A DNA stretch of 47,807 nucleotides from Thermoanaerobaculia bacterium. GTDB lineage: Bacteria; Acidobacteriota; Thermoanaerobaculia; Gp7-AA8. The stretch is taken from positions 1 through 47,807 of the forward strand of contig JBGPFD010000001.1 of NCBI GenBank assembly GCA_041483175.1, given 5' to 3'. The translations under genes and the position numbers were made by a program. Positions 24,710 through 45,616 of the stretch are shown here, one piece after another. Numbering within the stretch: position 1 is the first letter of the stretch; every line of letters starts with the position of its first letter. Below the pieces are notes generated by a model. That model was not told where the DNA came from. It made no database searches and saw only the letters and a program-made list of their open reading frames with translations.

Positions 24710-24817
24710 CGAGGGACCTGGGCGGACGGGCGGCACGCATCTGTAGCCGTCGACATTCGCCATCGACATCCCGGCGCCACACACCCACACAGGCCCCTCG
24801 CTACGCTCGGGGTGACA
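24693..24817. repeat. MITE-like element with 28-bp terminal inverted repeats (26/28 matching) flanking 69 nt, spanning the 3' ends of two convergent genes.
   Basis: Left arm tgtcatcccgagcgtagcgagggacctg at 24693..24720. Right arm caggcccctcgctacgctcggggtgaca at 24790..24817. Confidence 0.8.
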
Positions 24818-26666
24818 CAGCTTGCCGCTCGACCAGCCCCTCGAACACCTGCAACGCCAGATCGACGCGCCCCAACGGCGCAGACACCTGCACGCCGGCG
24901 ACCTGCACGCGCTCGAGCGTCTCGCGCGCGATTGTCACGCCCTCGCGCAACGCGAATTCTTTTCCTTTGTCGCTGGCGATGCGCATCCGCTCCATGACTT
25001 CATCCGAAACCGCGACGCCGGGCACCTCGTTGTTCATGAACTGCGCGTTGCGGTACGAGAGCAGCGGCCAAATGCCGGCGACGATTGGCAAGCGCATGTT
25101 CTCGATGCGCTTCAAGAATTTCTCGAGCACGACGACATCGAAGACCGGCTGGGTGATCGCGTACTCCGCTCCGGCCTTCACCTTCCACTCGAGCCGCCGC
25201 AACTCGTAATCGAGATCGAGGTGACCCGGATTGACGCCGACGCCGATGGTGAACTTCGTCGGCTCGCCGAAGGGATTCCCGCCGAGATCGAGACCGCGAT
25301 TCATCAGGCTGACCATATTCGTCAGGCCGATGGCATCGATGTCAAAGACCGCGGTGGCATCGGGATACGGCCCCATCTTCGGCGGATCGCCGGTAATCAA
25401 CAGGAGATTGCGCAGCCCGAGCGCGGCGCATCCGAGCAGATCGGAGTGCATGCCGAGGAGGTTGCGATCGCGGCAGCAGTAATGGAGGACCGCCTCGATT
25501 CCCACGCGCTGCTGCAGCAGCACGGCGACGGCGATCGCTCCCATCCGATTCTGCGCGCGCGGGCCGTCGGGCACGTTGACACCGTCGACGCCTGCTTCCT
25601 TGATCGCCTGCACTGACTTGAGCATGGCCTCGGGATTCGGGCCCTTCGGCGGCGTGATCTCGATGGTCGTGACGAATTCTCCGCGCGCGATCTTGTGCCC
25701 CCAGCGCGAGCGCCCTTCGAGCGGAATCGGCTCCTGTCCCTGCGTCTTCTTTCCGTTCGCTTCGCGCTCGATGATCACAAACGAGCGACGCGGCGACAGC
25801 GGCCGGACCGCGTCGGCCATGGCGTGAATGTGCTCGGGCGTCGTCCCGCAGCAGCCGCCGAGGAACTTCACTCCTTTGTGAATCAGCCGCTTCGCGTATT
25901 TCGCCATGTAGTCGGGCGAGGCCATGTACATCTGCCGGCCGGCGACTTCGCGCGGCAATCCGGCGTTGGGCTGGCATGACAACTTCCGCGCCGTGGCGGC
26001 GCTCATCTCCTCAATAGCGTCGAGCATGACGTCGGGGCCGACCGAACAATTGAGCCCGATGACGTCGGCCCCCGCGCGATCGAGCCGTTCGGCGATCTGT
26101 CGCGGCGTGTCGCCGAAAATCGTCCGGACATCGTTGCCGATCGTCATCTGCGCCACGACCGGCAGCGAACAGATGTCGCGGATGGCCAGGATTCCCTGCT
26201 CGACCTCGGCGATGTTCGACATGGTCTCCAGGATGAAGAGGTCTACCCCGCCATCGCGCAGCGCCGCGGCCTGCTGGCGAAAGAACTCGCGCGCCTCGTC
26301 CAGCGCCGTCGGGCCGTACGGCTCGATGCGGATGCCCAGCGGACCGATCGCGCCGGCGACGTAGACCGAATCGCCCGCCGCCTTGCGCGCCAGCTCGACC
26401 GCGGTCAGGTTGATCTCGCGCAACTCGTCTTCGATGCCGAAGCTGCGCAGTTTCACCCGATTCGCGCCGTAGGTGTTGGTCTCCAGAATCTCGGCGCCCG
26501 CGCGCACGTACTGCTTGTGCACCTCCAGCACGATCTCCGGATTGCGGAGATTAAGCTCGTCGTAGCACTTGTTGATGAAGACTCCCTTGGCGTAGAGCAT
26601 CGTCCCCATAGCTCCGTCGAAAAGGTAGACGTGCTCGTCGGCAATCGCTTGAATGAAATCTTGCAT
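24801..26666 (-). CDS. Bifunctional homocysteine S-methyltransferase / 5,10-methylenetetrahydrofolate reductase (YitJ-like fusion).
   Basis: The N-terminal Hcy-binding domain is LFDGAMGTMLY...ETNTYGAN...GGCCGTTPEHI. The C-terminal MTHFR domain covers roughly 330..621 aa. Confidence 0.9.
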   Translation of the reverse strand: MQDFIQAIADEHVYLFDGAMGTMLYAKGVFINKCYDELNLRNPEIVLEVHKQYVRAGAEILETNTYGANRVKLRSFGIEDELREINLTAVELARKAAGDSVYVAGAIGPLGIRIEPYGPTALDEAREFFRQQAAALRDGGVDLFILETMSNIAEVEQGILAIRDICSLPVVAQMTIGNDVRTIFGDTPRQIAERLDRAGADVIGLNCSVGPDVMLDAIEEMSAATARKLSCQPNAGLPREVAGRQMYMASPDYMAKYAKRLIHKGVKFLGGCCGTTPEHIHAMADAVRPLSPRRSFVIIEREANGKKTQGQEPIPLEGRSRWGHKIARGEFVTTIEITPPKGPNPEAMLKSVQAIKEAGVDGVNVPDGPRAQNRMGAIAVAVLLQQRVGIEAVLHYCCRDRNLLGMHSDLLGCAALGLRNLLLITGDPPKMGPYPDATAVFDIDAIGLTNMVSLMNRGLDLGGNPFGEPTKFTIGVGVNPGHLDLDYELRRLEWKVKAGAEYAITQPVFDVVVLEKFLKRIENMRLPIVAGIWPLLSYRNAQFMNNEVPGVAVSDEVMERMRIASDKGKEFALREGVTIARETLERVQVAGVQVSAPLGRVDLALQVFEGLVERQAVSPRA

Positions 26667-26943: not shown

Positions 26944-29091
26944 TCACTTTCCGAAGATTTTCTTCAACTTTCCCCAGGCCCCTTCGACGCTCTGCCGTTC
27001 GCGATCAACCTCGTCCGCCCAGCGGCGGAACTGGTCGTAGGTGATCGCCGGCGGTTCGTCGAAATGTTCCTTGTCGAGAAAAACACGGCGAAGGATGGCG
27101 CCGAGCAGCCCGCGCGGGCACGCGTGCGTGGGGGCCGTTCCCTCGAGAAAGACCTCGTGCCACGGTCCGGGACAGCCGTCGCGCCAGAGCATGCCGCTAT
27201 CGGGATCGATGTCGCGGAAGGTGACGCCGGGTGGCGGTTTCGGCTCCGCGTGCTGGTGCGGAATGGCGCTCATGTACGACGCCCAGATCGGAATCGCCGC
27301 CTCGGCGGATGACAGCCGCAGCGGCGCGCCGTGATCGAATCCGACCCACACTGTGGTCACCATGTCGGGCGTATACCCGACGAACCACGCGTCGCGGTAG
27401 TCATTCGTCGTTCCGGTTTTTCCGGCGACGTAGCCGAGCCCCCAGCGCCCGAGGCGCGAAGCCGTTCCGCGCTGCACCACGCCACGCAGGAGCGTGTGCA
27501 TGACGTAAGCGGCATCGGCATTCACGACCTTCTTCGTTTCCGGCTGGTGGCTGAAGAGCGCCTTCCCCGCGTGATTGCGAACGGCGGTGAGCAGAAACGG
27601 CTCGGCACGCGTGCCGAGGTTCGGGAAGGGCGTGTAGGCGGCGGTCAACTCACGGATCGTAACTTCGATGACCCCGAGCGGAAGCGCGGGAATGGGGGCG
27701 AGCTTCTCGTCGAAGCCGAACTCCGCTGCCGTGCGCACCACACTCTTCACTCCGATCTGCTGCGTGAGACGGACGGTCGGCACGTTGAGCGATTTTTCGA
27801 ACGCTTCGCGGAGCGAGACGCGGCCGCGATAGCGCTCGTCGTAGTTGTGCGGCTCCCACGGCTCCTCACCGCGGACCTCGATGGTGACCGGCGAGTCGAG
27901 CAGGAGCGTCGCGGGCGTGGCGCGCTTCGAGGCGATCGCCGCCAGATAGGCGAAGGTCTTGAACGCCGATCCCGGCTGGCGGCGCATGGCGGATGTGCGA
28001 TCGAATGGTGAGACGTTGTAATCGGTGCCGCCGACGAGCGCCCGGATGCCGCCGCTGCGCGGATCGACGGAGAAGATGGCCACTTCCAGCGGCTCGTTGC
28101 GCGCCGCGGCGCGAATCCACGAGTGCCCCGCCTCGAGCTGACTCGGCGCGCGGCGCGCCACACGTTCCGCCGCGTGCTGCGCGTCGGGATCGATCTGGCA
28201 ATCGATTGTCAGCCCGCCTTCGATGACCGGCCGTATGCCGATCTGTTTCACCAGCTCGCCGCGAAGCGCGCGGAGATAAAAAGGAAACGGCGGCTGCGGA
28301 ATCGATCCTTCGACGAAGCGGACGTCGTGCGCGACGGCCTGGCGAAACTGGTCGTCGCTGATCCAGCCGCGCTTCTGCATCACCGCCAGGACGGCATCGC
28401 GGCGCGCGCGGACGACGTCGGGACGGCGCCACGGATTGTCGCGGTTCGGCGCGCGAATGATGCTGGCGAGCATGGCCGCTTCGTCGAGTCGCAGCTCACC
28501 CGGCAGCTTGTCGAGATAGAGCCGCGAGGCTTCATCGATTCCCAGGACCGGCTTTCCGGCTTTGTGCCCGAGGTAGACGTCGTTCAGATAGATCTCCAGG
28601 ATCTCGTCCTTCGACATGCGCGCATCGAGCAGCAGGGCGAGCGCGATCTCCACGAACTTCCGCCGCCAGGTTCGTTCCTGAGAGAGAAAACGCGCCTTGA
28701 TGATCTGCTGATCGATCGTGCTGCCGCCCTGCGTGATGCCGCCGGCGCGCACGTCCGCCAGCAGCGCGCGGGCCATTCCGACCGGGTCGATCCCGATGTG
28801 ATGCCGGAATCGGACATCCTCGGCGGCCTGGAAGGCCTTCGGGACGTAGTCGGGAAGTGTCCTCAGCGCCGCCGGCGGAGTGACGCGCCAGTCGACGCCG
28901 TAAAGCGTTGTCACCACTGCACGTGTGCTCGATCGGAGGACGGTCGGCTCGCGCCAGGTGTGATGAACCAGCTCGTTGGTCAGGCGGCGGTTCATCACGA
29001 AGAGGTAGACGGCGACCGTCTCCATTCCGACAAAGACGGCGAGAGCCAGGGCGATGGGCCACCACATCAGCGAGCGTGACAATCGCACCAT
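26944..29091 (-). CDS. Class A penicillin-binding protein (PBP1A family; glycosyltransferase GT51 plus transpeptidase).
   Basis: The GT51 motifs are EDVRFRHHIGIDP, GGSTIDQQIIK and RKFVEIALAL. The transpeptidase motifs are SAFK, SLN and KTGTT. Confidence 0.9.
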   Translation of the reverse strand: MVRLSRSLMWWPIALALAVFVGMETVAVYLFVMNRRLTNELVHHTWREPTVLRSSTRAVVTTLYGVDWRVTPPAALRTLPDYVPKAFQAAEDVRFRHHIGIDPVGMARALLADVRAGGITQGGSTIDQQIIKARFLSQERTWRRKFVEIALALLLDARMSKDEILEIYLNDVYLGHKAGKPVLGIDEASRLYLDKLPGELRLDEAAMLASIIRAPNRDNPWRRPDVVRARRDAVLAVMQKRGWISDDQFRQAVAHDVRFVEGSIPQPPFPFYLRALRGELVKQIGIRPVIEGGLTIDCQIDPDAQHAAERVARRAPSQLEAGHSWIRAAARNEPLEVAIFSVDPRSGGIRALVGGTDYNVSPFDRTSAMRRQPGSAFKTFAYLAAIASKRATPATLLLDSPVTIEVRGEEPWEPHNYDERYRGRVSLREAFEKSLNVPTVRLTQQIGVKSVVRTAAEFGFDEKLAPIPALPLGVIEVTIRELTAAYTPFPNLGTRAEPFLLTAVRNHAGKALFSHQPETKKVVNADAAYVMHTLLRGVVQRGTASRLGRWGLGYVAGKTGTTNDYRDAWFVGYTPDMVTTVWVGFDHGAPLRLSSAEAAIPIWASYMSAIPHQHAEPKPPPGVTFRDIDPDSGMLWRDGCPGPWHEVFLEGTAPTHACPRGLLGAILRRVFLDKEHFDEPPAITYDQFRRWADEVDRERQSVEGAWGKLKKIFGK

Positions 29092-29172
29092 GTTCGTCTA
29101 AATTACACCGCTACCAAGCAACCAAATTGCCACCGCGGTCGATCTCTGAAGTCTTCACAAAGGAGAAAACGC

Positions 29173-29577
29173 ATGGCCACCAGGAAACGGTCGAAGAAGT
29201 CCTCTTCCAAGCGCTCGAAATCGTCGGCGAAGAAGAAATCCGCCAGCCATTCGCGCAAGGGCAAAGGCGCAAAGAAGAGCGTCGCGAAAAAGAGACCGGT
29301 AAAGAAAGCCGCCGCGAAAAAGAAACCGGTAAAGAAAGCCGCCGCGAAAAAGAGCGCAGCCCCCAAGCCGGCGCCCAGCCGCAGCGCGCCGAAGCCCGCC
29401 GCCCCGGCACCGCGCCCGAGCAAGAGCGTGATCAGCCGCGTGGTCGAGCAGGTACGCGACACCGCCAGACCGTTCGGCTCGTCGATCGGAAGCACGATGC
29501 CTGGCCGCCGCGAAGAAGAGCCGTATGGCGGCGGCGGCGGGGAAGACCCGGAAGGCGGCTCCTCGGAAGAGTTCTGA
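29173..29577 (+). CDS. Lysine/alanine-rich histone H1-like nucleoid protein with an acidic Gly-rich tail.
   Basis: An aaggag RBS precedes ATG 29173. The protein begins MATRKRSKKSSSKRSKSSAKKKSASHSRKGKGAKKSVAKKRPVKKAAAKKKPVKKAAAKK. A 30-bp unit is tandemly repeated about 2.4 times at 29284..29355. Confidence 0.7.
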   Translation: MATRKRSKKSSSKRSKSSAKKKSASHSRKGKGAKKSVAKKRPVKKAAAKKKPVKKAAAKKSAAPKPAPSRSAPKPAAPAPRPSKSVISRVVEQVRDTARPFGSSIGSTMPGRREEEPYGGGGGEDPEGGSSEEF

Positions 29578-29585: not shown

Positions 29586-29643
29586 GCGACGTAGCGCCGG
29601 CTCTCAGCCGGCGCACGCCGCCTGGAGAGGCGGCGCTTCGTTG
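29586..29643. repeat. REP-like double-hairpin element (family copy 2), between convergent gene ends.
   Basis: It shares acgtagcgccggctctcagccggc and cgccgcctggagaggcggcg with copy 1, in the same orientation. Confidence 0.8.
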
Positions 29644-29650: not shown

Positions 29651-30676
29651 TCAGCTCGCGTTCTCGAACACCTTCCGAATACGCTTCGAGAAGTACTTCT
29701 TCGGAAGGCCGTCTTTCCACGCCCGGAGTTGTTTCGCTTTCCGGAACGACTTCATCGCCGCGTTCCTGTACGTGGCATCGGCCTCGAACGCGTACTGTGA
29801 GTACTGCGACGCGCCGAGAAACGCCCATATCCAGCCATTTCTCGGCATCTCCTCCGACAGCTTGCCGAACTGCATCGCGGCGTCATCGAACTCACCGTTG
29901 AAATAGCTTTCCAGTGCCTGGCGGACGCGTTTCGTCGTATCGGCGATGACCACCTGCGTGGCGGTGCCCGGTCGCGTGACCGGCGGCGACGGCAGGCCGG
30001 GGGCCGTCGCCGCGTCGGCAAAAGTGGCGGCATTCTCGGCGAGCGCAATCACGGCGTTGAGATCGTCGTTCGACCGCGCCATGACGTTGCGCGTGTTCGC
30101 ATCGGCGACGGCCTGCAACGCCTGAACGTACTGCGGCGACTGGGTCGCTTTGCGCTGCTGCGCGGCAGCGAGATGCTGTTTCGCTTCGTTGATCGCCGCC
30201 TGAGCGCGCTGTTTGAGCGCCGCATCGATCGCCGGAACGGCCGGCTGCTGCGGCACAGGAACGGGTCGAACCGGCTGCGGTTGTGGCGCGACCGGCTGCG
30301 GCTCCGGCGTCGTGGCCGACGCAAGCTTCGTCTTGGCGCGCTCCATCAGCGTCTCGATCGGACCCTGATCGACCTCTCCCGGTCCGCTGGTCTTCTCGAA
30401 ATCCGCAATGGCCTGCTCGTATTTGCCGAGATTGAGAGAGGCCACGCCGCGGTAGTAGTAGGGGTGGTAATTGATGAAGATCGCGCCGTAGGTGCGGGCG
30501 TGATTGTCTTCCTTCGCATTTCCCTTGATCGCCGCTGTCATCTTCTGGACAACGACCTGCCATTGCCCCTTCCGCGCGGCGTCGAGTCCTGCATCGTAAT
30601 CGTCGTACCACGAGGCGAGCGCGATTCCCGCGGCCAGTTGCACAGCGAATGCGGCGACGATCACCTTCCGCATCAT
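29651..30676 (-). CDS. Secreted TPR-like protein with a Pro/Gln-rich linker; last gene of the kinase operon.
   Basis: Signal peptide MMRKVIVAAFAVQLAAGIALA. A TPR-like segment YYYRGVASLNLGKYEQAIADFEK. The ATGATG start overlaps the upstream TGA. Confidence 0.6.
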   Translation of the reverse strand: MMRKVIVAAFAVQLAAGIALASWYDDYDAGLDAARKGQWQVVVQKMTAAIKGNAKEDNHARTYGAIFINYHPYYYRGVASLNLGKYEQAIADFEKTSGPGEVDQGPIETLMERAKTKLASATTPEPQPVAPQPQPVRPVPVPQQPAVPAIDAALKQRAQAAINEAKQHLAAAQQRKATQSPQYVQALQAVADANTRNVMARSNDDLNAVIALAENAATFADAATAPGLPSPPVTRPGTATQVVIADTTKRVRQALESYFNGEFDDAAMQFGKLSEEMPRNGWIWAFLGASQYSQYAFEADATYRNAAMKSFRKAKQLRAWKDGLPKKYFSKRIRKVFENAS

Positions 30677-32406
30677 TGTTTTGTAACTTCCTTTTGCAGC
30701 TCGTCGAAGTTCACGCCGCCGAAATCGACCATCTTTGGCACGCGCTGTCCGGCGTCGATCTGCACGGCGAACGTTTTGGTCTCATTCGGTCCGCTCATGG
30801 TGACTAGATACTTTCCGGGCGCCAGCTCGATCCGTGTCGGCGTCGAGCGCGACTCATCATTCAGATTCACCGGCGCGTTATCCTTTTCGTTGATGATTTT
30901 GTCGACATCGCCCCACGGTGAGGCGGAGAGCAGCAGGACTCCCTGCCCGGCCGGAATGGCCGCCGTCGACGACGGAGCCGTCGCGGTGACGGTGGTCCCG
31001 CTGGCGACGCCCGTGCCTGTCACGCCCGGTTTCGTCCCGTGAGACGGCAACACGAACACGCCGATCCCGATGGCCAGAACGATAGCCGCGGCGATTGCCG
31101 AAAGGATCACCGTGTTCCTCTTTTTTGCCGCCGGCTGCATCTGCCGCTCGAGCACCGTCGGCGCGGCCTGCGACGTCCGTTCGAGCACGGTCGGCTCGTT
31201 GCTACCGGTGGCGACGCGTTCGATGAGCGTCGGCTGCTGCGAGGCCGTCACCGGAGCGAAGCCGCGTTCCACCACCGTGGCCTGATCGGCCTGTGTCCGC
31301 GCCGTGCCGGCGGTGGTCATTGCCGTCGGTGCGCTTCCGGTGGTGGGAACCTGTCCGGTGCGCACGCGCGGCACGTCGGTGACGGTGCGCTGCGCGGAAA
31401 GCGTGACCATCCGCTCGCCGAGGCCGTACTTCTCATCGGGGGCGATGGCGCTGCGGATCGCTTCGAGGCCCTCGGCAAATTCAGCGGCCGAAGCGAAGCG
31501 CTGATCGCGGCCCTTCTCCAGCGATTTCATGACCATCGCCTCGAGCTGCGGCGGGACGCTCACCTCGGGACTGAGCTGCGCGATCGGCAACGGCTTCTCG
31601 GTCACGTGCTTGAGGATGTAGCCGTGAGGATTGGTCGCCTGGAACGGCGCGCGGCCGGCGAGCATCTCGTACATCACGATGCCGAACGAATAGAGATCGC
31701 TGCGCGGATCGAGATGTTCGCCTTCTTTCAGAAAGCCCGCCTGCTCGGGCGAAGCGTATTTCAGCTTGCCCAGGAACATGCCCGTCTGCGTGAGGCCGTG
31801 ACCGGACTCCCCTTCGGCCAGCGATTTGGCGATGCCGAAGTCGATCACTTTCACCAGCAGCTTCCCGTGGTGATCCTGCGACAGCATGATGTTTTCGGGA
31901 GAGATGTCGCGATGGATCAGGCCCATGGAGTGCAGGTGCTCGAGTCCGTTGAGCGCCTGAATGGCCACTTCAATCGTCAACCGCGCCGGCATCGGCCCGT
32001 TCTGGAACGTCCACTTCTGAATGTTGATGCCGTCGATGAACTCCCACACCATGTAGTAGGAGCCGTCTTCGAGCTGCGCGAAGTCGTACAGCATCGCCAG
32101 GTTCTTGTGTTTGATCATCGTGGACGTGCGCGCCTCCTGGAGGAAGCGCTGCATGCCCTGATCGTCCGCGGCGACGTTCGGCCGCATGATCTTGATGACC
32201 CGCAGCTCGTTGAGATGGATGTGGCGCACCTTGAAGATCTCTCCCATCCCGCCGACGCCGAGGCGGTCGAGGATCTGGTACTTGCCGTCGATCAACCGGG
32301 CCGAATACGTGCGCTGAAAATTCGTCACCCGCTCGGCGCAGTGCGGGCACTGGTCGAGCTGGCTGTCGATCGGTTGCTTGCATCGCAGACAATTAATCTC
32401 TGGCAT
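30673..32406 (-). CDS. Ser/Thr protein kinase with an N-terminal zinc ribbon, one TM helix and an extracytoplasmic PEGA-like domain.
   Basis: CLRCKQPIDSQLDQCPHC is the zinc ribbon. Kinase motifs are GVGGMGEIFKV, VIKIM, HRDISPEN, DFG and SPEQ. The TM helix is VILSAIAAAIVLAIGIGVFVL. The C-terminal segment is LLLSASPWGDV...LAPGKYLVTM. ATG 32406. Confidence 0.85.
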   Translation of the reverse strand: MPEINCLRCKQPIDSQLDQCPHCAERVTNFQRTYSARLIDGKYQILDRLGVGGMGEIFKVRHIHLNELRVIKIMRPNVAADDQGMQRFLQEARTSTMIKHKNLAMLYDFAQLEDGSYYMVWEFIDGINIQKWTFQNGPMPARLTIEVAIQALNGLEHLHSMGLIHRDISPENIMLSQDHHGKLLVKVIDFGIAKSLAEGESGHGLTQTGMFLGKLKYASPEQAGFLKEGEHLDPRSDLYSFGIVMYEMLAGRAPFQATNPHGYILKHVTEKPLPIAQLSPEVSVPPQLEAMVMKSLEKGRDQRFASAAEFAEGLEAIRSAIAPDEKYGLGERMVTLSAQRTVTDVPRVRTGQVPTTGSAPTAMTTAGTARTQADQATVVERGFAPVTASQQPTLIERVATGSNEPTVLERTSQAAPTVLERQMQPAAKKRNTVILSAIAAAIVLAIGIGVFVLPSHGTKPGVTGTGVASGTTVTATAPSSTAAIPAGQGVLLLSASPWGDVDKIINEKDNAPVNLNDESRSTPTRIELAPGKYLVTMSGPNETKTFAVQIDAGQRVPKMVDFGGVNFDELQKEVTKQ

Positions 32407-32422
32407 CGTGGCTCCTGTGACA

Positions 32423-32480
32423 TTGCCGGTTACCTGTTTCCGGAGAGTTCCGGCAACTGGCAACCGGGAACCGGCAACTT
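32423..32480. repeat. Inverted heptamer arrays filling the spacer between the two kinase genes.
   Basis: ttgccgg ttacctg tttccgg at 32423..32443. ccggcaa ctggcaa ccgggaa ccggcaa at 32450..32477. The outer units are perfectly complementary. The array ends 16 nt from ATG 32406. Confidence 0.75.
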
Positions 32481-33695
32481 CTAGTGGTCTCTCACGACAT
32501 AGCTACACGACGGATCGGCGCCGAAACGCACGACGTCTCCCGGTTTGAGTTTGGCGCGTTCGACGCGCGTGTTGTTGACGTAGGTTCCATTCGCTGATTT
32601 CAGATCCTCGAGCACGCAGGAGCTTCCGCTCAACGTGATCTTCGCGTGCCGGCGCGAGACCGCCGGATGGGGCAGCACGATCGAACAACTGCGATCGCGG
32701 CCCACCATCACGCTCTCTCCCTGCAGCGCGTGCTTCTCGTTGACTTCCGGCTTCACGTTCACCAGCAGCCACTGCGGAGTCGCGGATCCGGCCGGCAGGG
32801 ATCGCACGGGCGTGGGGATGGCGCTCTGCGTCGGAGTGTAGACCGGACGGAGGTTGTACTCTTCGAGCGCGTCGTAGAACGCGCGGGCGCTCTCGTAGCG
32901 GCCGTCGAGCCGCGGGTACATTGCACGCAGCACGATGGCCTCCAGGTCGGCGTCGATCTCCGGGCGGATGGCGCTCGGCGCCTGTTTCTCGCCGCGATAG
33001 ATGGCGTCGATCAGCTTCGGAAGCGAGCGGCTGTTGAAGGGAAGCGCGCCGGTCAGCATCTCGTACAACACGACGCCCGCAGAGTAGACATCGCTTTTCG
33101 CGCCGGCGTCCTTCGGCTCGCGAATCTGCTCCGGCGACATGTAGTGGGGAGTGCCGAGGAGGAAGCCTGATTTGGTCAGTACGGTCTGTCCCATCGCGGC
33201 ACCCTCTTTGATCTTGGCGATTCCGAAGTCGGTCACCTTCACCACGCCCGGTTTTTCGCTGATCAGATTCGCCGGCTTGATGTCCCGATGGACAATTCCC
33301 TTTCCGTGCGCGTAAACCAGCGCTTCGAGCATGCACTGGGCGATGCCGATCGCCTCGGTGATCGGAAGCGCTCCTTTTTCCGATAGCAGGATGTCGACCG
33401 GCGTTCCTTCGACGAACTCCATCACCAGCACGGCGTTGTTGGCGTTGTTGATGAATTCGTAGAAACGGGTGATGTAGCGGTGTCGAAGTTTCTCCAGGAT
33501 CTGCGCCTCTTTGATGAAGCGCTTTCGGGCCGTCACTTCGCCGGCCAACTCCTCCGACATGATCTTCAGCACCACGGCAAAATTCTCGGGAAGCAGCTCC
33601 TTGCGCGCCACCGTCCGCCCGACGAAGACGTGGCTCATTCCCCCTTCGCCGATCTCGCGCTCGATGCGATAGTTGCCGATGACGTCGCCGATCAT
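32481..33695 (-). CDS. Cytoplasmic Ser/Thr protein kinase with a C-terminal FHA domain.
   Basis: Kinase motifs are GEGGMSHVF, VVLKIM, HRDIKPANL, DFGIAK and SPEQ. The FHA part is VMVGRDRSCSIVLPHPAVSRRHAKITL...DLKSANGTYVNN. Confidence 0.9.
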   Translation of the reverse strand: MIGDVIGNYRIEREIGEGGMSHVFVGRTVARKELLPENFAVVLKIMSEELAGEVTARKRFIKEAQILEKLRHRYITRFYEFINNANNAVLVMEFVEGTPVDILLSEKGALPITEAIGIAQCMLEALVYAHGKGIVHRDIKPANLISEKPGVVKVTDFGIAKIKEGAAMGQTVLTKSGFLLGTPHYMSPEQIREPKDAGAKSDVYSAGVVLYEMLTGALPFNSRSLPKLIDAIYRGEKQAPSAIRPEIDADLEAIVLRAMYPRLDGRYESARAFYDALEEYNLRPVYTPTQSAIPTPVRSLPAGSATPQWLLVNVKPEVNEKHALQGESVMVGRDRSCSIVLPHPAVSRRHAKITLSGSSCVLEDLKSANGTYVNNTRVERAKLKPGDVVRFGADPSCSYVVRDH

Positions 33696-34336
33696 TTCAA
33701 AGCGCCCTCGTCATCCCAGTAGAAGCTTTCGTTGCACAGCGGCGTGAACAGGAAGCGATGCGAGCCAATGCGCACGATGTCGTTGGCGACGAGATCGCGC
33801 CGCGGCTCGATCTCCTGTTCGTTGACGTACGTGCCATTCGTGGAGTTGTGATCCATCAGGATGAAGCGCCGCTCTTCCGGGCGGAAGACGAGATCAGCGT
33901 GATGCGTGGAGGCCTGATCGTCGTTGATTGCAACATCCGACCGGTGGTCGCGTCCGAGAGTGTTCCTGCCGATGCGCACCGGGAATGATTCGCCGCGCGC
34001 GGTTCCATTGAGCCCCACCAGCCAGCCGACGACATAGCGCTTCGGTTGTGCCTCGGGCGGCCCGATCTTCTGCGCCGCGACCGTGCGCTCCATCGGCGGC
34101 GGCTGCACCGGCGCCGTTTCACGCCGCGGCGGCGCGGCGGGCGGGGGAACCGGGGTGGGGCGGCGCGGCTCGGGCGGGGTCGTGGGAGGGCTCGCGTCCT
34201 GTGAGCCGAAACGGCTCGGGCGAACCACCGGAATGTCCGACTCTTTCTCTACCGCCGGACAGTACGGACAGAGGTCCCACGACTCGTCGATGAAGTGTCC
34301 GTTTTCGCAGCGTTTATCAGCCACTGCCAGCCTCAC
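33692..34336 (-). CDS. FHA domain protein with an N-terminal zinc ribbon and a Pro-rich linker.
   Basis: CENGHFIDESWDLCPYC is the zinc ribbon. The FHA part is FPVRIGRNTLGRD...ASTHHADLVF...DHNSTNGTYVNE. GTG 34336 overlaps the upstream TGA (GTGA), and its own stop overlaps the next ATG (ATGA). Confidence 0.85.
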   Translation of the reverse strand: MRLAVADKRCENGHFIDESWDLCPYCPAVEKESDIPVVRPSRFGSQDASPPTTPPEPRRPTPVPPPAAPPRRETAPVQPPPMERTVAAQKIGPPEAQPKRYVVGWLVGLNGTARGESFPVRIGRNTLGRDHRSDVAINDDQASTHHADLVFRPEERRFILMDHNSTNGTYVNEQEIEPRRDLVANDIVRIGSHRFLFTPLCNESFYWDDEGALK

Positions 34337-35967
34337 GCGTGATAGGCGACCGCAATTGCGTTGCGACCCCCAAAATAAATGATGTCGCCGTCTTTGAGAT
34401 ACCGTTTGTCGATCTTCTGATCGTTGACGTACGTTCCATTGGACGAATTCCGATCGATCAGCAATACCTTGCCATCGATCGACACGACCTCGGCGTGGAG
34501 GCGCGAGACCTTCGGGTTTTCCAATACGATCTCACAAATCGACGATTCCCGCCCGATCCGGATTCCCGAACCGCCGAGCCCGAGGCGCTCCCCCGCCCGG
34601 TCGCCGTTCAGAATTGTGAAACGCCCCAGAAGCAACGGGACCTGGCTCGCCGTGGTGTCGCTTCCCTGCCGTCCCACCGGAGCCACGACCGTTTCCACCG
34701 TCTTCGCGGTCAGCAGATCTTTCGGGATGCGGTGGCGCCGCGAGGTCAGCGCGATGATCACCGTCACCAGCACCACCAGCGCGCCAACCCCGATGGCGCC
34801 GGTAATCAGAGGATGCAGCCGCCACATCGGCATCGACTGCAGCCCACGGTCAACATCGCGGCGGAAGCGGACCAGGTCGGGAGAGCTGGGAAAGAGGGCG
34901 CTCGACAGCGTCAGCTCTTCTTTCGCCACGGTCCATTTGCCGTCGACGGCAGCCTGCAGCGCCTTCCGCCAATGCCGGTTGAACTCTCCGCCGATGTTGA
35001 ACGCCAGGTGCGCCGCGCTCAGGAAATCCTTGGCCACGTTGATCGGGACGAGAAACTTGATCTGCTCCGCATCGCTTCGCCCCCAGGTGGAGATGCCGAC
35101 GACCTCACCATCGCGATTGACCGCCGGCCCGCCCGAGTTTCCGCGATAAATGCCGACGTTCGATTGGAACACCGGCGCGTTGTTGATGTCGCGTTTGATG
35201 GCGGTGATGGTGCCGTTGGCCAGCGTCGCTTCGAGATCGCTTTCGCGCGACAGCCAGCCGCCGATGATGTCGTCGGTACTGCTGGCCACGGCGGGATAGC
35301 CAATGGACCACACCGAATCGCCGACGCGAACGGCGTCGGAATCGCCGAGCTGCAGCGCCGGCAGGTCCTTTCGCCCGGCGACGCGCAGCAGCGCGAGATC
35401 GGCCCCGCGCTCGTTCAATGCGGGCGAGTAGCGCTCGACGCGGAACGGCAGCTTCTCGCCATTCGAGAGTTCGACCTCGTTGACGATGACGACGTGATCG
35501 AGCCGCCCCTTCGCGGCAAGCGCGAGCTCATGCCGCTCCAGCGCGTCGCCGCGATAGAGCCGCCGAAGCTCGTCGACCGGAAAATGCTTCAGCAGCGCGG
35601 AGATCGCTCCGTTCCGCAGCAGCTCCTTCTCCAGCGCGGCGTTGTCGCGTGTCTGCGCGATAACGTGCCCGCTGGTGAGAATCCAGCCGTCTGGATTGAT
35701 GATGAATCCGCTCCCTGACCCACCCGCCCCGGTCTCCACGGTGCTTTCCACCGTACCGTCACGCCAGGTCAGGCCGACTTCATGCGCGATGTCATCGAGC
35801 GCCTTCGCCGGATAATGAAACTGCGCCGTGGCGTAGGCGTTGATGCGCACCACCGCGGGCTTGACCGCGTATGCCATCTTCTGCACGTCGTCGAGACGCG
35901 ACACGTCGCGGCGGCAGGCAACAGCCACCAGCAACAGAAGGAGGAGGCGTCGGGAACCGGGAGACAT
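34333..35967 (-). CDS. Trypsin-like (S1/Trypsin_2) serine protease, one TM helix, then a C-terminal FHA domain.
   Basis: N-terminal signal/anchor LLLLLLVAVAC. Triad contexts are LTSGHV, DLALLRV and GNSGGPAV. The TM helix is LITGAIGVGALVVLVTVIIAL. The FHA part is IRIGRESSICEIVLENPKVSRLHAEVV...DRNSSNGTYVND. Confidence 0.85.
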   Translation of the reverse strand: MSPGSRRLLLLLLVAVACRRDVSRLDDVQKMAYAVKPAVVRINAYATAQFHYPAKALDDIAHEVGLTWRDGTVESTVETGAGGSGSGFIINPDGWILTSGHVIAQTRDNAALEKELLRNGAISALLKHFPVDELRRLYRGDALERHELALAAKGRLDHVVIVNEVELSNGEKLPFRVERYSPALNERGADLALLRVAGRKDLPALQLGDSDAVRVGDSVWSIGYPAVASSTDDIIGGWLSRESDLEATLANGTITAIKRDINNAPVFQSNVGIYRGNSGGPAVNRDGEVVGISTWGRSDAEQIKFLVPINVAKDFLSAAHLAFNIGGEFNRHWRKALQAAVDGKWTVAKEELTLSSALFPSSPDLVRFRRDVDRGLQSMPMWRLHPLITGAIGVGALVVLVTVIIALTSRRHRIPKDLLTAKTVETVVAPVGRQGSDTTASQVPLLLGRFTILNGDRAGERLGLGGSGIRIGRESSICEIVLENPKVSRLHAEVVSIDGKVLLIDRNSSNGTYVNDQKIDKRYLKDGDIIYFGGRNAIAVAYHA

Positions 35968-35979
35968 GGCAGCGGTGGT

Positions 35980-36876
35980 TTATCGTGAAGAACGCGGAGC
36001 AGAGGTGGTCATTCCCGTACCGGGGCGATCCTTCACTGTATCTTCAAAGGGAGCGTGGTCGTCGCGCGTCTCGTCGCCGGGCTGACCGGCGCGAACGACC
36101 CTGGCCACGATCACCGTCACGTTGTCGGGAGCGCCGCGCTCCAGCGCCAGGCGCACGAATTCGTCCGCGGCCGCCTGCTGCGGAAGCTTGCCAATCTTCC
36201 GGATCTCGTCTTCCTTGACCATGCCGTGCAGCCCGTCGCTGCACAGGATGAAGACATCGTTCTCGCGGACGTCGAGCGGCCCGCGGACGTCAATCTCCAC
36301 TTGTTCGCCAACCCCGATCGAGCGCTGCAGGACGTTCCGGCGCGGATGGTTTTCCGCCTCCTGCGACGTCAGCAGTCCCTCCCGCACCATCGTCGCTACC
36401 AGTGAGTGGTCCTCAGTCAGTTGTTTGATGGCATCGCCGCGGATGCCGTAGATGCGCGAGTCGCCGACGTGGGCGAACCACGCCTGCGATCCGCGGATGA
36501 CCAGCGCCGACGTCGTGGTGCCCATGCCGCGCAGATCGGCATTCGACTGTGCCTCGGAAAATACGCGCGCGTTCGCGCTGGCGAGGGCGTCGCGAAGCGA
36601 GGCCGCGACGTCTGCCGTCTCGCTGCCGAGGTATTGCGCCTTCACCGTTTCGCCTGCCAGGCGGGAGGCGGTCGCACCGCCCCGGTGGCCACCCATCCCG
36701 TCGGCCACGATCAGCAGCCGCCCGCCGGGATGACTGGCCGCCTCTTCGCGCGGCGTGGTGTACGTTCCGAAGTCCTGGTTTTCCGCGCGCACCCGCCCCA
36801 CGTCAGTCTTCAAGACTGCCTGCACGATGAGGCGATCAGTGGAGGTCACAGGTGCTGGCGCAGGTTGTTCGGTCAT
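35980..36876 (-). CDS. PP2C-family Ser/Thr phosphatase (Stp/PstP-like); first gene of the operon.
   Basis: DVGRVRAENQDF, IVADGMGGHRGG, HVGDSRIY, LCSDGL and DNVTVIV. Confidence 0.9.
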   Translation of the reverse strand: MTEQPAPAPVTSTDRLIVQAVLKTDVGRVRAENQDFGTYTTPREEAASHPGGRLLIVADGMGGHRGGATASRLAGETVKAQYLGSETADVAASLRDALASANARVFSEAQSNADLRGMGTTTSALVIRGSQAWFAHVGDSRIYGIRGDAIKQLTEDHSLVATMVREGLLTSQEAENHPRRNVLQRSIGVGEQVEIDVRGPLDVRENDVFILCSDGLHGMVKEDEIRKIGKLPQQAAADEFVRLALERGAPDNVTVIVARVVRAGQPGDETRDDHAPFEDTVKDRPGTGMTTSAPRSSR

Positions 36877-37001
36877 CCGATTGAACGGCTTGGAAGACTC
36901 GAGAACTCGGTCGTTCTATGTTGCTGAACGGTGGTCGATTATAGCGGCTTATTCGAGGTAAACCGCCAAAAGCAGGCAACATCCCGTACCCTTAGGAGTG
37001 C

Positions 37002-38423
37002 ATGCACGGCAGAGCGCGCCGGCGGCTCGGTGGGTGGATGTTACTGCTCGTCGCGGTGCTCGCCGTACGCGCCGCCGCGCAACAGCCAGCCGAAGCCGCC
37101 GCGCTCCAACAGGCCCAGAAGCTCGCCTGGAGCCGGCATTTCGCCGAAGCCGAACGGATCTATCGCCACTTGCTGCGGCAGTCGCCGAACTCGCGTGACG
37201 TGCGGGTCGGGCTCGCACGCGTTCTTCTGTGGGAAGGACGTTACCGCGAGGCGCGCACGATGTTTCTGCAGCTCGTGGCGCGGCATCCATCGGATGTCGA
37301 CGCCGCGGAGGGAGCGGCGACCGCTGCGTACTGGCAGGGCGACTTCCGCACCGCCGCGCGCGAATTCCGCGCCCTCGCCGCTGCCCACCCGGAACGGACG
37401 TCGGCGGTCAAGAGCCTGCACGACATCCTGCTCGCCACGCGTGGCAGCGAGCGCGTATTGCTTGACGCCACGAACGACAATCAGCCATACCGCCTGTGGC
37501 GTTCGGAGGCGGTTGCCTCCGTCTTTTCCGACCCGCTGACGCGATGGGATGTGACGGCGGGCGTCTGGCGCGCTGACAACCCAAGGCTCTCCGTGGTCCG
37601 CAGCGGCCCGTATGTAGTCGTCAGCAACGAAGTGGGGCTGCCTTGGCAGCGATTGACGATTACGACGAGCGCCGGCGTCCTCCGCTGGCCTGACGGGACG
37701 ACCCGACCGATCGGCGGAGTCGCGGCGCGACTGCGCACGTCGGCCACTTCGTCGATCGAAGCGGCCATCGACCACCGCGAACTGCTGCGCACCTCCACCG
37801 CAATCGGCGGTCGTCCCGCCGTCACGCGGATGCTCCTCAGCTGGAGCCGCTACGCCGAAAAAGAGTGGCTCGCCGGCTTCGAGTCAGGACGCCTGCAATA
37901 CTTCGATCGAAACCGCGGCTGGTACGTTCAAGGCTACGGCTTGTGGCCGGTAATGGGGCGCGGGCCGCTCACCGTCTTTGCCGGTGCTTCCGCCGCGCTG
38001 CGCGATACGCGCGACAGCAGGTTCTACATCGAAGCGATCGCGTCGGAGCGGTCGGGCTCGGAATTTCTCTACGCCTATCGCGGCGCGTACACGCCGTACT
38101 GGACGCCGCAACACCTGCAGGAAACGCGCGCGATCGTCACCGCGTCGGAGGCGGTCGCGCGAAACGCCACCATCAAAATCCAGGCAGAGGCCGGCGTTGC
38201 CCGTGACCGCGCGCAATCTTTCGGACCGTCGGAAGGACCCTCACCTCTCCCGTCGACGATCTTCGTCTTCGACTTTCAAAGGACATTCCACCCGACGCGA
38301 TTTTCCATCGGCGCATCGCTGGCGCTTTCTCCGGTCTACGCGCTGGAGCTGAGCGCAGAGCGAAACACGACCGTCTTCTACCGTGCGAAGGAGTTCCGTG
38401 CGACCGTGGTCCGACATCGCTGA
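37002..38423 (+). CDS. TPR-repeat protein with a putative C-terminal outer-membrane beta-barrel (PgaA/NfrA/YaiO-like exopolysaccharide porin candidate).
   Basis: aggag RBS and a signal peptide. There are three TPR-like repeats (AEAERIYRHLLRQSPNSRDVRVGLARVLLWEGRYREARTMF...). These are followed by about 300 aa of alternating beta-strand-like pattern. The barrel assignment is inferred from pattern and context, not from a motif. Confidence 0.5.
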   Translation: MHGRARRRLGGWMLLLVAVLAVRAAAQQPAEAAALQQAQKLAWSRHFAEAERIYRHLLRQSPNSRDVRVGLARVLLWEGRYREARTMFLQLVARHPSDVDAAEGAATAAYWQGDFRTAAREFRALAAAHPERTSAVKSLHDILLATRGSERVLLDATNDNQPYRLWRSEAVASVFSDPLTRWDVTAGVWRADNPRLSVVRSGPYVVVSNEVGLPWQRLTITTSAGVLRWPDGTTRPIGGVAARLRTSATSSIEAAIDHRELLRTSTAIGGRPAVTRMLLSWSRYAEKEWLAGFESGRLQYFDRNRGWYVQGYGLWPVMGRGPLTVFAGASAALRDTRDSRFYIEAIASERSGSEFLYAYRGAYTPYWTPQHLQETRAIVTASEAVARNATIKIQAEAGVARDRAQSFGPSEGPSPLPSTIFVFDFQRTFHPTRFSIGASLALSPVYALELSAERNTTVFYRAKEFRATVVRHR

Positions 38424-38424
38424 A

Positions 38425-39954
38425 ATGTTCCGCCATCGTCGGGCGGCGCCCGTGCGCTTGTGGGAGCGCGCGCTGCTGGGCGTTCTGCTCTTTCTGGGAT
38501 TGTGGAGCGTGATCTATTTCGGCTTCTGGTGGTTCCAGCTCGATCACGTGAATGAGCCGCTGCTGTTCGTGCTCCTGTCGCTTGCCACGTGGTACGGCGT
38601 TTTTCGGATGATGGTCGGCTGGTACAACGCCTTTCACATCGAGCAACCCGACCCGCTGCCGCCACCGGACGGCCTCTCCGTGGCCATCTTCACGACCTCG
38701 TCACCGGGCGAGCCGTACGAAATGTTCGTTCGCACTCTTGCCGCGGCGCGCGAGGTGCGTTACCCGCACACGACCTACCTGCTCGACGACACGCGCGATC
38801 CGCGATTCGCCCGACTGGCGGCCGAGATGGGAGCGGTGCATCTCGAGCTGATCGGAATCCCGGGCGCCAAGGCGGGAAAGATCAACGCGGCGCTGGAGCG
38901 AACCACCGAGGAGTTCATTCTGGTTCTCGACCCGGACCACATCCCGTTTCCGGAGTTTCTCGACCGCGTCCTCGGCTATTTCCACGACGAGCAGGTGGGC
39001 TTCGTTCAGGTCGCGCAGGCCTATCACAATGCCGGCGAGTCGTTCGTGGCGCGCGCGGCGGCGGAGCAGACCTTTTCCTTTTACGGCCCGATCATGCAGG
39101 GGATGCACGGAACGGGAACGGCGGTGGCCATCGGCGCAAACTGCACGTTCCGCCGCAGCGCGCTGCAGTCGATCGGCGGCCATGGGATCGGGCTGGCGGA
39201 AGATCTGGTCACCTCGATCCGCCTGCACGCCCGCGGGTGGAAATCGGTCTATGTGCCGGAGATCGTCTCGCGCGGGCTGGTGCCGTCGGACCTCGATTCC
39301 TTCCTCAAGCAACAGCTCAAGTGGTCGCGCGGCGTCCATGACGTCCTATTTCGCGAGTATCCTCGAGCATTCCGCCGGCTGACGGCCCACCAGAAAATTT
39401 CCTACTTCATGATCGGCAGCTACTACATCGTCGGCCTCACCTCGTTCATCTACATCACCATTCCGCTCGTCTATCTCTGGACCGGCCATCAACCGGCTGC
39501 CTTTCTTCTTTCCGAGTATGTCCAGCACGCGCTGCCGGTGGGACTTCTGGGCGTGGTGATCTACCGCTTCGTCCAGCGATGGCTTTGCGATCCGCTCCGC
39601 GAACGCGGCAGCCACTGGCGGGGTACGCTGATGAAGCTCGGCACCTGGAACGTCTACCTCAAAGGACTGGTTCTGGCGCTCCTCGGAGTCGCCGTTCCGT
39701 ACATTCCGACGGCGAAGGAACGAAAGCGCGGCCGTTTTTGGAAGCTCGCACGCGTGCCGATGGTCACCATCGCGTTGTCGCTGACCACGCTGGTCTGGAC
39801 CGCGTTCCGGCAGTTGTTCGTGCTGCCGGAATCGGAGGTGCGGATCACGACGGAAGTGACATTCGGCATGGTGGCGTTCACCATCATGAATACTGTATTG
39901 ATGAGCGGCAGGATTTACGCTGCCTGGCAGGATCGCGAGCGAGTCGAAGAATGA
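38425..39954 (+). CDS. Processive GT2 glycosyltransferase, cellulose-synthase-like, without a PilZ domain.
   Basis: Two N-terminal TM helices. Catalytic motifs are LLDDTRD, VLDPDH, GLAEDL (TED-like) and QQLKWSRG (QxxRW-like, with K in place of R). Multiple C-terminal TM helices. ATG 38425 lies 1 nt after the upstream stop. Confidence 0.85.
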   Translation: MFRHRRAAPVRLWERALLGVLLFLGLWSVIYFGFWWFQLDHVNEPLLFVLLSLATWYGVFRMMVGWYNAFHIEQPDPLPPPDGLSVAIFTTSSPGEPYEMFVRTLAAAREVRYPHTTYLLDDTRDPRFARLAAEMGAVHLELIGIPGAKAGKINAALERTTEEFILVLDPDHIPFPEFLDRVLGYFHDEQVGFVQVAQAYHNAGESFVARAAAEQTFSFYGPIMQGMHGTGTAVAIGANCTFRRSALQSIGGHGIGLAEDLVTSIRLHARGWKSVYVPEIVSRGLVPSDLDSFLKQQLKWSRGVHDVLFREYPRAFRRLTAHQKISYFMIGSYYIVGLTSFIYITIPLVYLWTGHQPAAFLLSEYVQHALPVGLLGVVIYRFVQRWLCDPLRERGSHWRGTLMKLGTWNVYLKGLVLALLGVAVPYIPTAKERKRGRFWKLARVPMVTIALSLTTLVWTAFRQLFVLPESEVRITTEVTFGMVAFTIMNTVLMSGRIYAAWQDRERVEE

Positions 39955-43660: not shown

Positions 43661-43758
43661 CCGGGAAATGAATACCAACCGGGGGCGTTTCACTGTCCGA
43701 TCGATTAATCCTACTAGAATCGCGTTCGGCAGGCTGTGCGAATAACAGGTCCTTCCAT

Positions 43759-45576: not shown

Positions 45577-45610
45577 GGAGCTGCGGCGTGGCCGCGCTCG
45601 GCGGACCCGC

Positions 45611-45616
45611 TATAAT
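45611..45616 (+). promoter_or_regulatory. Candidate -10 box (TATAAT) 15 nt upstream of the cyclase ATG.
   Basis: ccgcTATAATcgaaggcctccacatATG. Confidence 0.3.

Follow-up and report, generated by a model that had tools for sequence, protein, structure and literature searches.

A conserved six-gene Ser/Thr phospho-signalling operon of Thermoanaerobaculia that includes a predicted protease-transmembrane-FHA protein

The analysis of a 47,807-nucleotide stretch of DNA from Thermoanaerobaculia bacterium (Acidobacteriota; Gp7-AA8; assembly GCA_041483175.1, contig JBGPFD010000001.1, positions 1-47,807; the whole stretch is called the window below) identified six consecutive minus-strand genes, G1 to G6, that combine a Ser/Thr phosphatase, two Hanks kinases and three FHA domains with a trypsin-like protease and a secreted helical protein. 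Known here from sequence alone, G1-G6 is a real operon, conserved as a block across the Thermoanaerobaculia. Most known operons that combine kinase, PP2C and FHA genes are those of Actinobacteria (cell division) and of type VI secretion, and the FHA readers are cytoplasmic in both. The kind of cluster is already known; what is new here is the presence within it of a protease joined, through a transmembrane (TM) helix, to an FHA domain. We put the chances at about even that the products of the operon form a cell-envelope complex for Ser/Thr phospho-signalling that spans the membrane, and the domain content suggests that proteolysis would be gated by phosphothreonine (pThr).

Domains were called with Pfam and NCBIfam at curated cut-offs, and TM segments by hydropathy. 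Species-representative genomes were scanned for orthologues; 319 contained a relative of G2, and the counts below use the best 80 loci, all from metagenome-assembled genomes of Thermoanaerobaculia or Acidobacteriota. Gene order in the related loci was read from tblastn matches of the window proteins, as far as each contig extends. More than 1,150 relatives of G2 were found at E <=1e-10. The best 120 all had the same architecture, and the named ones were from Thermoanaerobaculia or Acidobacteriota. The operon is laid out as follows.

35980-36876, minus strand: G1, a soluble PP2C Ser/Thr phosphatase of 298 amino acids (aa), the first gene of the operon
34333-35967, minus strand: G2, a trypsin-like protease-TM-FHA protein of 544 aa
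33692-34336, minus strand: G3, a Zn-ribbon-Pro-rich linker-FHA adaptor of 214 aa, with a GTG start
32481-33695, minus strand: G4, a soluble Hanks kinase with a C-terminal FHA domain, 404 aa
32407-32480, minus strand: the G4-G5 spacer of 74 nucleotides (nt), with a degenerate hairpin of about four GTTGCCG-like heptamers, then an AGGAG ribosome-binding site
30673-32406, minus strand: G5, a Zn-ribbon-Hanks kinase-Thr-rich linker-TM-stalk-beta-sandwich protein of 577 aa
29651-30676, minus strand: G6, a secreted all-alpha protein of 341 aa

The six-gene minus-strand order, described by a first-pass annotation of the same letters, was borne out, with all six open reading frames (ORFs) present. The junctions are also as it had given them: a 12-nt gap between G1 and G2, a 4-nt GTGA overlap between G2 and G3, a 4-nt ATGA overlap between G3 and G4, the 74-nt spacer between G4 and G5, and a 4-nt overlap of the ATGA type between G5 and G6. 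The start of G5 is the ATG that follows the AGGAG site; a TTG at 32463 is an unlikely alternative. The Pfam profile search matched the main domains that had been named (PP2C, Trypsin_2, three FHA and two Pkinase). A fixed stoichiometry, which had been read from translational coupling, may follow from this arrangement.

The order and orientation of G1-G6 were kept in 80/80 related Thermoanaerobaculia loci, within the reach of each contig and down to 56% identity in G2; since the six-gene arrangement recurs throughout this set, it is not a chance one. Tight spacing was retained at four of the five junctions, in agreement with the single unit proposed in the first pass. The gap between G1 and G2 was mostly 2-10 nt. 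The G2/G3 junction was a 4-nt overlap in 29 of 74 loci and a gap of 8-12 nt in 34, the 4-nt overlap of G3 and G4 was present in 63/70 loci, and that of G5 and G6 in 55/58. The most conserved parts of the proteins were the cytoplasmic signalling domains, with identities across orthologues of 90% for the G2 FHA domain (against 70% for the G2 protease domain, over 79 orthologues), 86% for the G5 kinase, 85% for the G3 Zn-ribbon and 80% for the G4 kinase. The periplasmic parts were less conserved (55-70% for the domains of G6 and 52% for the G5 ectodomain, beside the 70% of the protease).

The ends of the block were marked by the following features.

36877-37001, minus strand: the region 5' of G1, a divergent intergenic region with a perfect TATAAT at 36938-36943, a candidate promoter only
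29594-29635, no strand assigned: two GC-rich hairpins past G6, a palindrome at 29594-29614 and a terminator-like site at 29616-29635

The flank upstream of G1 was kept in only 6/56 loci, which places a boundary of the block at G1. No recognisable -35 element was seen in 36877-37001, and a consensus promoter scan reported no promoter there. The two hairpins at the other end lie between the convergent G6 (minus) and a Lys-rich ORF (plus) and lack a U-tract; they are the probable end of the transcription unit.

G2 matched Trypsin_2 (1.7e-27) and FHA (3.4e-19) in Pfam. The catalytic triad, H101, D190 and S278, was invariant across 11 full-length homologues. Among the orthologues, GNSGGP was found in 80/80, the context of the Asp in 77/80 and the exact string TSGHV in 64/80. 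A single TM helix (aa 387-405) is followed by basic residues and by the FHA domain at aa ~446-544, and Cys18, in a lipobox-like context, is invariant. Because of this helix and this Cys, both ends of the protease domain are probably anchored in the inner membrane, and the FHA domain would lie in the cytoplasm; the N-terminus may be lipid-anchored in addition to the C-terminal TM anchor. The pThr-binding residues of the FHA domain, GR...SxxH...NGT, were present in 78/80 orthologues of G2, and likewise in 72/72 of G3 and 69/70 of G4. The cytoplasmic linker of G2 (aa 409-445) contains a conserved motif, T-V-E-T-[V/I]-V-[A/E]-P, which could be a phospho-acceptor for FHA-mediated self-association.

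Of the known proteases, those of the HtrA family (S1C; DegS, DegP and DegQ) share with G2 the trypsin fold, the His-Asp-Ser triad and, as in DegS, the anchoring to the inner membrane. The PDZ domain is the regulatory domain of HtrA proteases. G2 differs in having no PDZ domain (no Pfam match) and, in its place, a C-terminal TM helix and a cytoplasmic FHA domain; it also has an insertion of ~60 residues between the His and the Asp, and the probable N-terminal lipid anchor. Its scores against the HtrA models were far below the cut-offs (TIGR02037, 99.9 bits against 416.2; the DegS model, 48.2 against 422.95).

G1 was matched by Pfam PP2C_2 at 2.3e-15, and by PP2C also, and passed the NCBIfam Stp1/IreP equivalog NF033484 with 244.5 bits against a cut-off of 230. 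Its five metal-binding motifs (RxxN[EQ]D, DGMGG, GDSR, SDG and DN[VIL][TS]) were all present in 70/70 orthologues. G3 matched Pfam FHA at 3e-17, and its Zn-ribbon motif, C-x-NGH-x8-C-P-Y-C, was found in at least 69/72 orthologues when the eight commonest variants were counted. The layout of Zn-ribbon, Pro-rich linker and FHA domain matches in architecture that of FraH from the cyanobacterium Anabaena. G4 combines Pkinase (6.8e-48) with FHA (2.4e-22). Its catalytic loop was HRDIKPAN in 69/70 orthologues, with DFG in 69/70 (DFGIAK in 64, DFGIGK in 5) and YMSPEQ in 70/70. No TM segment was predicted by hydropathy in G1, G3 or G4.

The second kinase, G5, matched Pkinase at 3.4e-43 behind an N-terminal Zn-ribbon, CxxC...CxxC. 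Its closest solved relative is PknB (1.9e-50), in which the Lys of HRDVKPAN is aligned with a Ser of G5. While G4 has the canonical Hanks loop HRDxKxxN, G5 departs from it in the Lys only, with the remaining motifs kept. The first-pass annotation had singled out this HRDISPEN loop as the exception among otherwise intact catalytic motifs, and both statements proved correct: the protease triad, the PP2C metal-binding motifs and the DFG and SPE of the kinases were kept among orthologues, and the loop was HRDISPEN in 55 and HRDVSPEN in 6 of 62 G5 orthologues. As HRD[I/V]SPEN is kept in 61/62 with the G-loop, DFG and SPE intact, the change from Lys to Ser appears, from the alignments, to be a conserved feature and not decay, and G5 is best described as a Hanks-fold kinase with an atypical catalytic loop. 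A literature search on HRDISP, HRDVSP and HRDLSP loops found nothing relevant.

Two further segments of G5 were delimited on either side of its TM helix (aa 434-452, preceded by basic residues).

31141-31287, minus strand: the G5 Thr-motif array (aa 374-422), four copies in the cytoplasmic juxtamembrane linker, a candidate phospho-acceptor and FHA docking site
30676-30942, minus strand: the G5 ectodomain, a predicted periplasmic seven-strand beta-sandwich of the divergent PEGA/CarboxypepD_reg (transthyretin-like) group

The four copies of the array in the window are DQATVVERG, QQPTLIERV, NEPTVLERT and AAPTVLERQ, which give the pattern [A/D/Q/N]-x-[A/P]-T-[V/L]-[V/I/L]-E-R; the consensus among orthologues is [A/D]-E-[A/P]-T-V-[M/I/L]-E-R. 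Across the 62 orthologues of G5, one copy was found in 3, two in 12, three in 25, four in 21 and six in one, so that at least two copies were present in 59/62. The mean was 3.2 copies per G5, compared with at most 0.1 in the other five proteins. Because the same operon encodes three FHA domains, the array is an obvious candidate for a multi-site pThr docking platform. The repeated motif offers a concrete hypothesis for the phosphosites and for FHA binding.

The first-pass annotation had called the ectodomain of G5 PEGA. In the window protein it had no Pfam match, PEGA (PF08308) included, at E values up to 1. Among 27 orthologues, sub-threshold matches to PEGA were found in 15 (best 3.5e-4) and to CarboxypepD_reg in 13 (best 2.5e-4), and an AlphaFold model built with the 27 orthologues as input was a seven-strand beta-sandwich with a pLDDT of 87-97. 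In the PDB, its weak fold matches were beta-sandwich domains, and chains of the RtkS-PpkA complex 9k1u were among them. On these grounds 'PEGA-like' is a fair label, and 'PEGA' itself a weak, clan-level call. A separate gene of the window (43759-45576, plus strand) has five CarboxypepD_reg repeats, of the same fold group as the ectodomain, which is common in this genome.

For G6, described in the first pass as a secreted TPR-like protein, the secretion signal was confirmed and the TPR assignment was found to be weak. An N-terminal signal peptide is predicted by hydropathy, with probable cleavage before the invariant SWYDDY, and in an alignment of 24 homologues the near-invariant blocks were this mature N-terminus and the C-terminal NGWIWAFLGASQYSQYAFEAD. 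TPR_1 gave a single match of 24.9 bits, below the cut-off of 27.8. The structural model was all-helical (mean pLDDT 72), with two helical domains, disordered Pro-rich linkers and helices between the domains. Compared with the PDB it matched TPR proteins at a best E of 2e-3 and a TM-score of at most 0.25, which gave no functional lead.

To place the protease-FHA fusion outside the class, 1.84 billion cluster representatives were searched exhaustively, and many full-length protease-TM-FHA homologues were found at 29-38% identity. The genomic context was examined for 11. The recovered contigs ranged from 32 to 72% GC and, judged by this range alone, would come from very different organisms. The protease-FHA gene adjoined a Hanks kinase gene, a PP2C gene or both in 8/11 (L081, L084, L085, L086, L087, L088, L090 and L091), and four of these 8 also had small FHA genes. 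The gene orders were as follows.

L081-L083: FHA, FHA, PP2C, kinase, protease-FHA
L085: Zn-ribbon-FHA, FHA, PP2C, kinase, protease-FHA, kinase
L087 and L088: protease-FHA, FHA, PP2C, kinase
L090: protease-FHA-FHA, kinase
L086: protease-FHA, kinase
L084: PP2C, protease-FHA
L091: a divergently transcribed kinase gene
P0204 contig: a protease-FHA gene convergent with a gene for an FHA-sigma54 activator
L089 and P0160 contig: uninformative contexts

The small FHA genes of L085, L087 and L088 encode an N-terminal C-x-(N/S)GH...CP(Y/I)C, similar to the Zn-ribbon of G3. The gene of L090 (10001-12259) encodes a variant, a 752-aa protease-TM-FHA-FHA protein, beside the kinase gene. In these loci the recurrent core is a predicted protease-TM-FHA protein with a transmembrane kinase, to which a PP2C and a small FHA protein, often with a Zn-ribbon, are usually added, and this smaller core module appears to be widespread. 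Neither a kinase-FHA fusion of the G4 type nor a homologue of G6 was found in the distant loci examined; for this reason, G4 and G6 look like additions specific to the Thermoanaerobaculia.

These loci bear on the most deflationary account of the operon, in which the genes are loosely co-located in a kinase-rich genome, with an inherited order and no dedicated circuit, or belong to an anti-phage or conflict system. Domains of this kind are indeed common here, since the window contains a further FHA gene (45443-47290) and a further PP2C gene (23588-24709); the flanking housekeeping genes are syntenic too; and the PADLOC kinase models matched G4 and G5 strongly. The PADLOC matches were generic, however, with no defence-system gene set, and the locus is stable next to housekeeping genes and does not lie in a variable island. 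In addition, the 4-nt overlaps are kept in 55-63 species, and protease-FHA genes are found repeatedly, in rearranged orders, linked with kinase, PP2C and FHA genes on contigs of 32-72% GC, a recurrence that argues for selection on co-expression. We therefore consider loose co-location very unlikely. A defence-system reading of the six proteins was rejected: PADLOC returned generic kinase or protease matches, none for G3 and a marginal, low-complexity match for G6. A 2020 eLife paper on conflict systems mentions FHA and PP2C in other contexts only.

In the mechanism that we favour, G5 would be both receptor and scaffold, and its beta-sandwich, probably together with the coupled periplasmic G6, would receive an envelope signal. 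Thr residues of the linker array would be phosphorylated by G5 itself or by the canonical soluble kinase G4. The pThr array would then recruit the three FHA domains, namely those of the kinase G4, the adaptor G3 and the tail of the protease G2. Docking of the G2 tail would cluster its PDZ-less periplasmic protease domain, or position it, beside G6 and the ectodomain of G5. In this way, proteolysis beyond the membrane would come under the control of phosphorylation inside the cell; alternatively, the protease would end signalling by trimming the sensor. The G1 phosphatase would reset the system. The most plausible output is envelope or cell-wall homeostasis, which is favoured because a neighbouring gene for a class A penicillin-binding protein (PBP) is conserved.

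Several observations weigh against this mechanism. G5 may be a poor kinase owing to its Lys-to-Ser change, and the +3 residue of the Thr motif is Glu, which was not matched to any known FHA specificity. The distant versions of the module have neither the TV[M/I/L]ER array nor G6, so the docking platform would be class-specific at best. The protease-FHA gene on the P0204 contig has no kinase or PP2C gene in view, and L089 and the P0160 contig are uninformative. The variable, hairpin-rich spacer between G4 and G5 could uncouple the expression of G1-G4 from that of G5-G6. Finally, class-level synteny alone is weak evidence of a functional link, because an unrelated housekeeping gene, the MetH/MTHFR-like gene downstream, is equally syntenic.

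The protease might instead act on the sensor itself. In such a feedback arrangement, the FHA-tethered G2 would cleave the stalk or ectodomain of G5, or G6, and would either shut the pathway off or activate it irreversibly; the regulated proteolysis would be that of a receptor and not of envelope substrates. G2 and G5 are alike in topology and in their flexible periplasmic stalks rich in Thr, Gly and Pro, G6 has two exposed Pro-rich linkers with pLDDT <50, and the distant modules, in the contexts with enough sequence, pair the protease-FHA protein with a transmembrane kinase of varying ectodomain. The case is nevertheless purely inferential, and no cleavage-site motif was identified. The G5 stalk and the G6 linkers are poorly conserved (37-50% identity), which is neutral as to the presence of a cleavage site. 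We regard a dedicated feedback role as improbable.

The main rival to the phospho-gated mechanism, and one that is compatible with it, is that the operon is a control cluster for cell-wall growth or division, an acidobacterial counterpart of the PknAB locus. The kinases and FHA proteins would regulate peptidoglycan synthesis, for example through the neighbouring class A PBP, and the protease would be accessory quality control and not the output under regulation. Such a role is possible, and we would place it clearly short of an even chance. The actinobacterial cluster fhaA-fhaB(fipA)-pstP-rodA-pbpA-pknA-pknB has the same count of parts in one operon: a single PP2C, a pair of Hanks kinases (one of them a transmembrane receptor) and a pair of FHA proteins that are not kinases. 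The kinase domains of G4 and G5 were closest to PknB, PknA and Stk1. Against the FhaB/FipA model NF049868 (cut-off 125 bits), G2 scored 48.2, G3 64.0 and G4 63.9, a resemblance of architecture only; the TM-linker-FHA part of G2 (aa 394-521) aligned, below the cut-off, with positions 10-139 of this model. The cluster was present in every related locus retrieved and its chromosomal position is stable.

The neighbouring PBP gene adds to this argument and also limits it.

26944-29091, minus strand: class A PBP, a neighbour outside the operon (Pfam Transgly 6.3e-51, Transpeptidase 7.4e-31)

It lies 0.5-2.6 kb downstream of G6, on the same strand, in 38/44 loci, while the upstream flank is variable. 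In the window it is split from G6 by an opposite-strand ORF (29173-29577) and by the hairpins, and we rejected this PBP1A as a member of the operon for that reason. The PBP gene is also absent from the distant versions of the module. The next gene downstream of PBP1A, at 24801-26666 (minus strand), encodes a MetH/MTHFR-like homocysteine S-methyltransferase-MTHFR fusion of 621 aa that is 81-89% identical across the class. Because this gene is also syntenic, the downstream gene order appears to be inherited class-wide, and the adjacency of the PBP gene may be inherited order as well. The lack of rodA and pbpA genes noted in the first pass holds for the operon itself, with the qualification that a class A PBP gene is found downstream in those 38 loci.

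Further differences from the actinobacterial cluster count against a straightforward counterpart. No SEDS protein (FtsW or RodA) or class B PBP was found among the six genes, and no FtsW or RodA among 20 other ORFs of the window. G1-G6 also lack a PASTA sensor, for which G5 had no Pfam match and in place of which its ectodomain is a single beta-sandwich, and the N-terminal domain of FhaA. The PBP encoded nearby is of class A and outside the unit. PstP is membrane-anchored, whereas G1 is soluble. The present operon, which belongs to a diderm phylum, has FHA domains fused to a kinase in one protein and to a periplasmic protease in another, and it also encodes a helical protein of the periplasm.

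The closest parallel on the periplasmic side is the PpkA-PppA-Fha1 pathway of the type VI secretion system, with its accessory proteins TagR and RtkS. Both it and G1-G6 combine a transmembrane Hanks kinase, whose periplasmic domain is small, with an accessory protein in the periplasm, an FHA reader and a PP2C that acts as eraser; the protease is present only here. G6 shows no detectable similarity to RtkS or TagR, although no direct comparison was made. RtkS and TagR act on the PpkA kinase's periplasmic domain, and RtkS binds and stabilises this domain (PMC6082577). As stated in the first pass, genes of the secretion system itself were absent, both from the flanks and from 20 further ORFs of the window that were scanned. 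The best score for a TagH/Fha-type FHA protein among the FHA proteins of the operon was 34.2 bits (TIGR03354, cut-off 120).

In Deinococcus radiodurans, DRA0331-0334 (vWA-STPK-FHA-PP2C) likewise encode a kinase, a stand-alone FHA protein and a PP2C together, and the FHA protein and the PP2C modulate the kinases antagonistically (bioRxiv 10.64898/2026.01.23.701218). The present operon has no vWA protein and no FHA-phosphatase fusion, and adds the protease-FHA protein, the kinase-FHA protein and the periplasmic partner. The first-pass annotation could match the operon to no described system, and our literature searches agree: they returned no account of a protease-TM-FHA module with a PP2C and a Hanks kinase.

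The distinctive feature of the operon is an FHA reader that is joined, via a membrane helix, to a PDZ-less periplasmic serine protease, and in very different bacteria this fusion is accompanied by a kinase, a phosphatase and a Zn-ribbon-FHA adaptor. Protease-TM-FHA proteins may form a widespread and so far undescribed class of 'inside-out' signalling protease, in which the binding of the FHA domain to pThr, written by a kinase and erased by a PP2C, would control the oligomeric state or position, and the activity, of the PDZ-less HtrA-like domain. We offer this as a speculative proposal and think it rather doubtful. If it is true, there would be a direct route from cytoplasmic Ser/Thr phosphorylation to periplasmic proteolysis, and the operon of the Thermoanaerobaculia, in which a receptor kinase would bear an array of several pThr docking sites, would represent the most elaborate version of it. 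The joining of a protease to a pThr reader, with its recurrent linkage to kinase and phosphatase genes, would surprise a specialist somewhat, its function being at present a presumed one. If the link is functional, it would be a new coupling of cytoplasmic phosphorylation to envelope proteolysis, and would give a first handle on signalling in the Thermoanaerobaculia, a poorly studied class of soil-abundant Acidobacteriota.

The one loose junction of the operon is the spacer between G4 and G5. The heptamer hairpin that had been described there is present, and was found to belong to a dispersed class and not to be specific to the operon. In the window, it has a folding energy of -35 kcal/mol and a z of -2.4, modestly better than shuffled sequences. 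In the orthologous loci, the spacer was 1-247 nt long (median about 75) and at least 55 nt in 41/67; of these 41 longer spacers, 38 form folds of 18 base pairs or more, and the arms have a period of 7-8 nt. The 5' arm is a tandem 7- or 8-nt unit, the 3' arm is its complement, and the unit varies by species. Units such as GTTGCTG, GGTTTCC, GAGTCTC, GGGGAGT, AGCTCTT and AGAACGC were seen, among others, and the hairpin-bearing spacers include those of L002, L022, L031, L035, L043, L051, L052 and L075. In the remaining 26/67 loci, the spacer was shorter than 55 nt and too short for the hairpin.

The window has like hairpins at 157-250 and, between the DUF1385 and RF-1 genes, at 7542-7617, with a z of -5.7 to -9.1. 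In the related loci they are found at many further intergenic positions, in some cases with the unit of the locus's own G4-G5 copy. In L035 and L052, one unit is reused at several sites. Overall, the class has a z of -5.5 to -9.4, arms of 3-6 unit copies and no U-tract, and lies between co-directional genes. An Rfam scan of the whole window matched no family, the spacer hairpin included, and we know of no described family with this tandem-heptamer architecture. Two candidate roles for the G4-G5 copy were rejected: that of an operon-specific regulatory element, given the weak z, the 26/67 spacers that are too short and the presence of the same type elsewhere, and that of a canonical intrinsic terminator, given the lack of a U-tract. 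From its pattern of occurrence, the G4-G5 hairpin is a member of a dispersed element class, which tends to fill the operon's one loose junction. REP elements occur in operons of E. coli and, by analogy with these, the hairpin may affect the relative stability of the G1-G4 and G5-G6 segments of the mRNA.

Among the genes around the operon, the ORF between PBP1A and G6 (29173-29577, plus strand) encodes a Lys/Ala/Pro-rich protein of 134 aa with a weak match to HC2 (histone H1-like; E 0.0023). The ORF converges on G6, a promoter-like site for it lies at 29076-29104, and tblastn matched it at the corresponding position in L003, L009, L023 and L039. Its product is probably a nucleoid-associated protein. 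The second gene of the PP2C superfamily in the window (23588-24709, plus strand) is of the SpoIIE type (6.9e-39) and lies ~5 kb beyond the 3' end of the operon.

On the other side, and divergent from the operon, 37002-43765 is an exopolysaccharide-like locus with genes for a TPR protein (473 aa), a cellulose-synthase-like GT2 (523 aa) and a GH26-like hydrolase; the GT2 gene adjoins the operon in only 6/56 related loci. A Cache-HAMP-PAS-GGDEF-EAL protein is encoded at 41117-43765 (minus strand). The further FHA gene at 45443-47290 (plus strand) encodes an FHA-GAF-adenylate/guanylate cyclase of 615 aa, the fourth FHA reader of the window, which could link pThr signalling to cyclic nucleotides.

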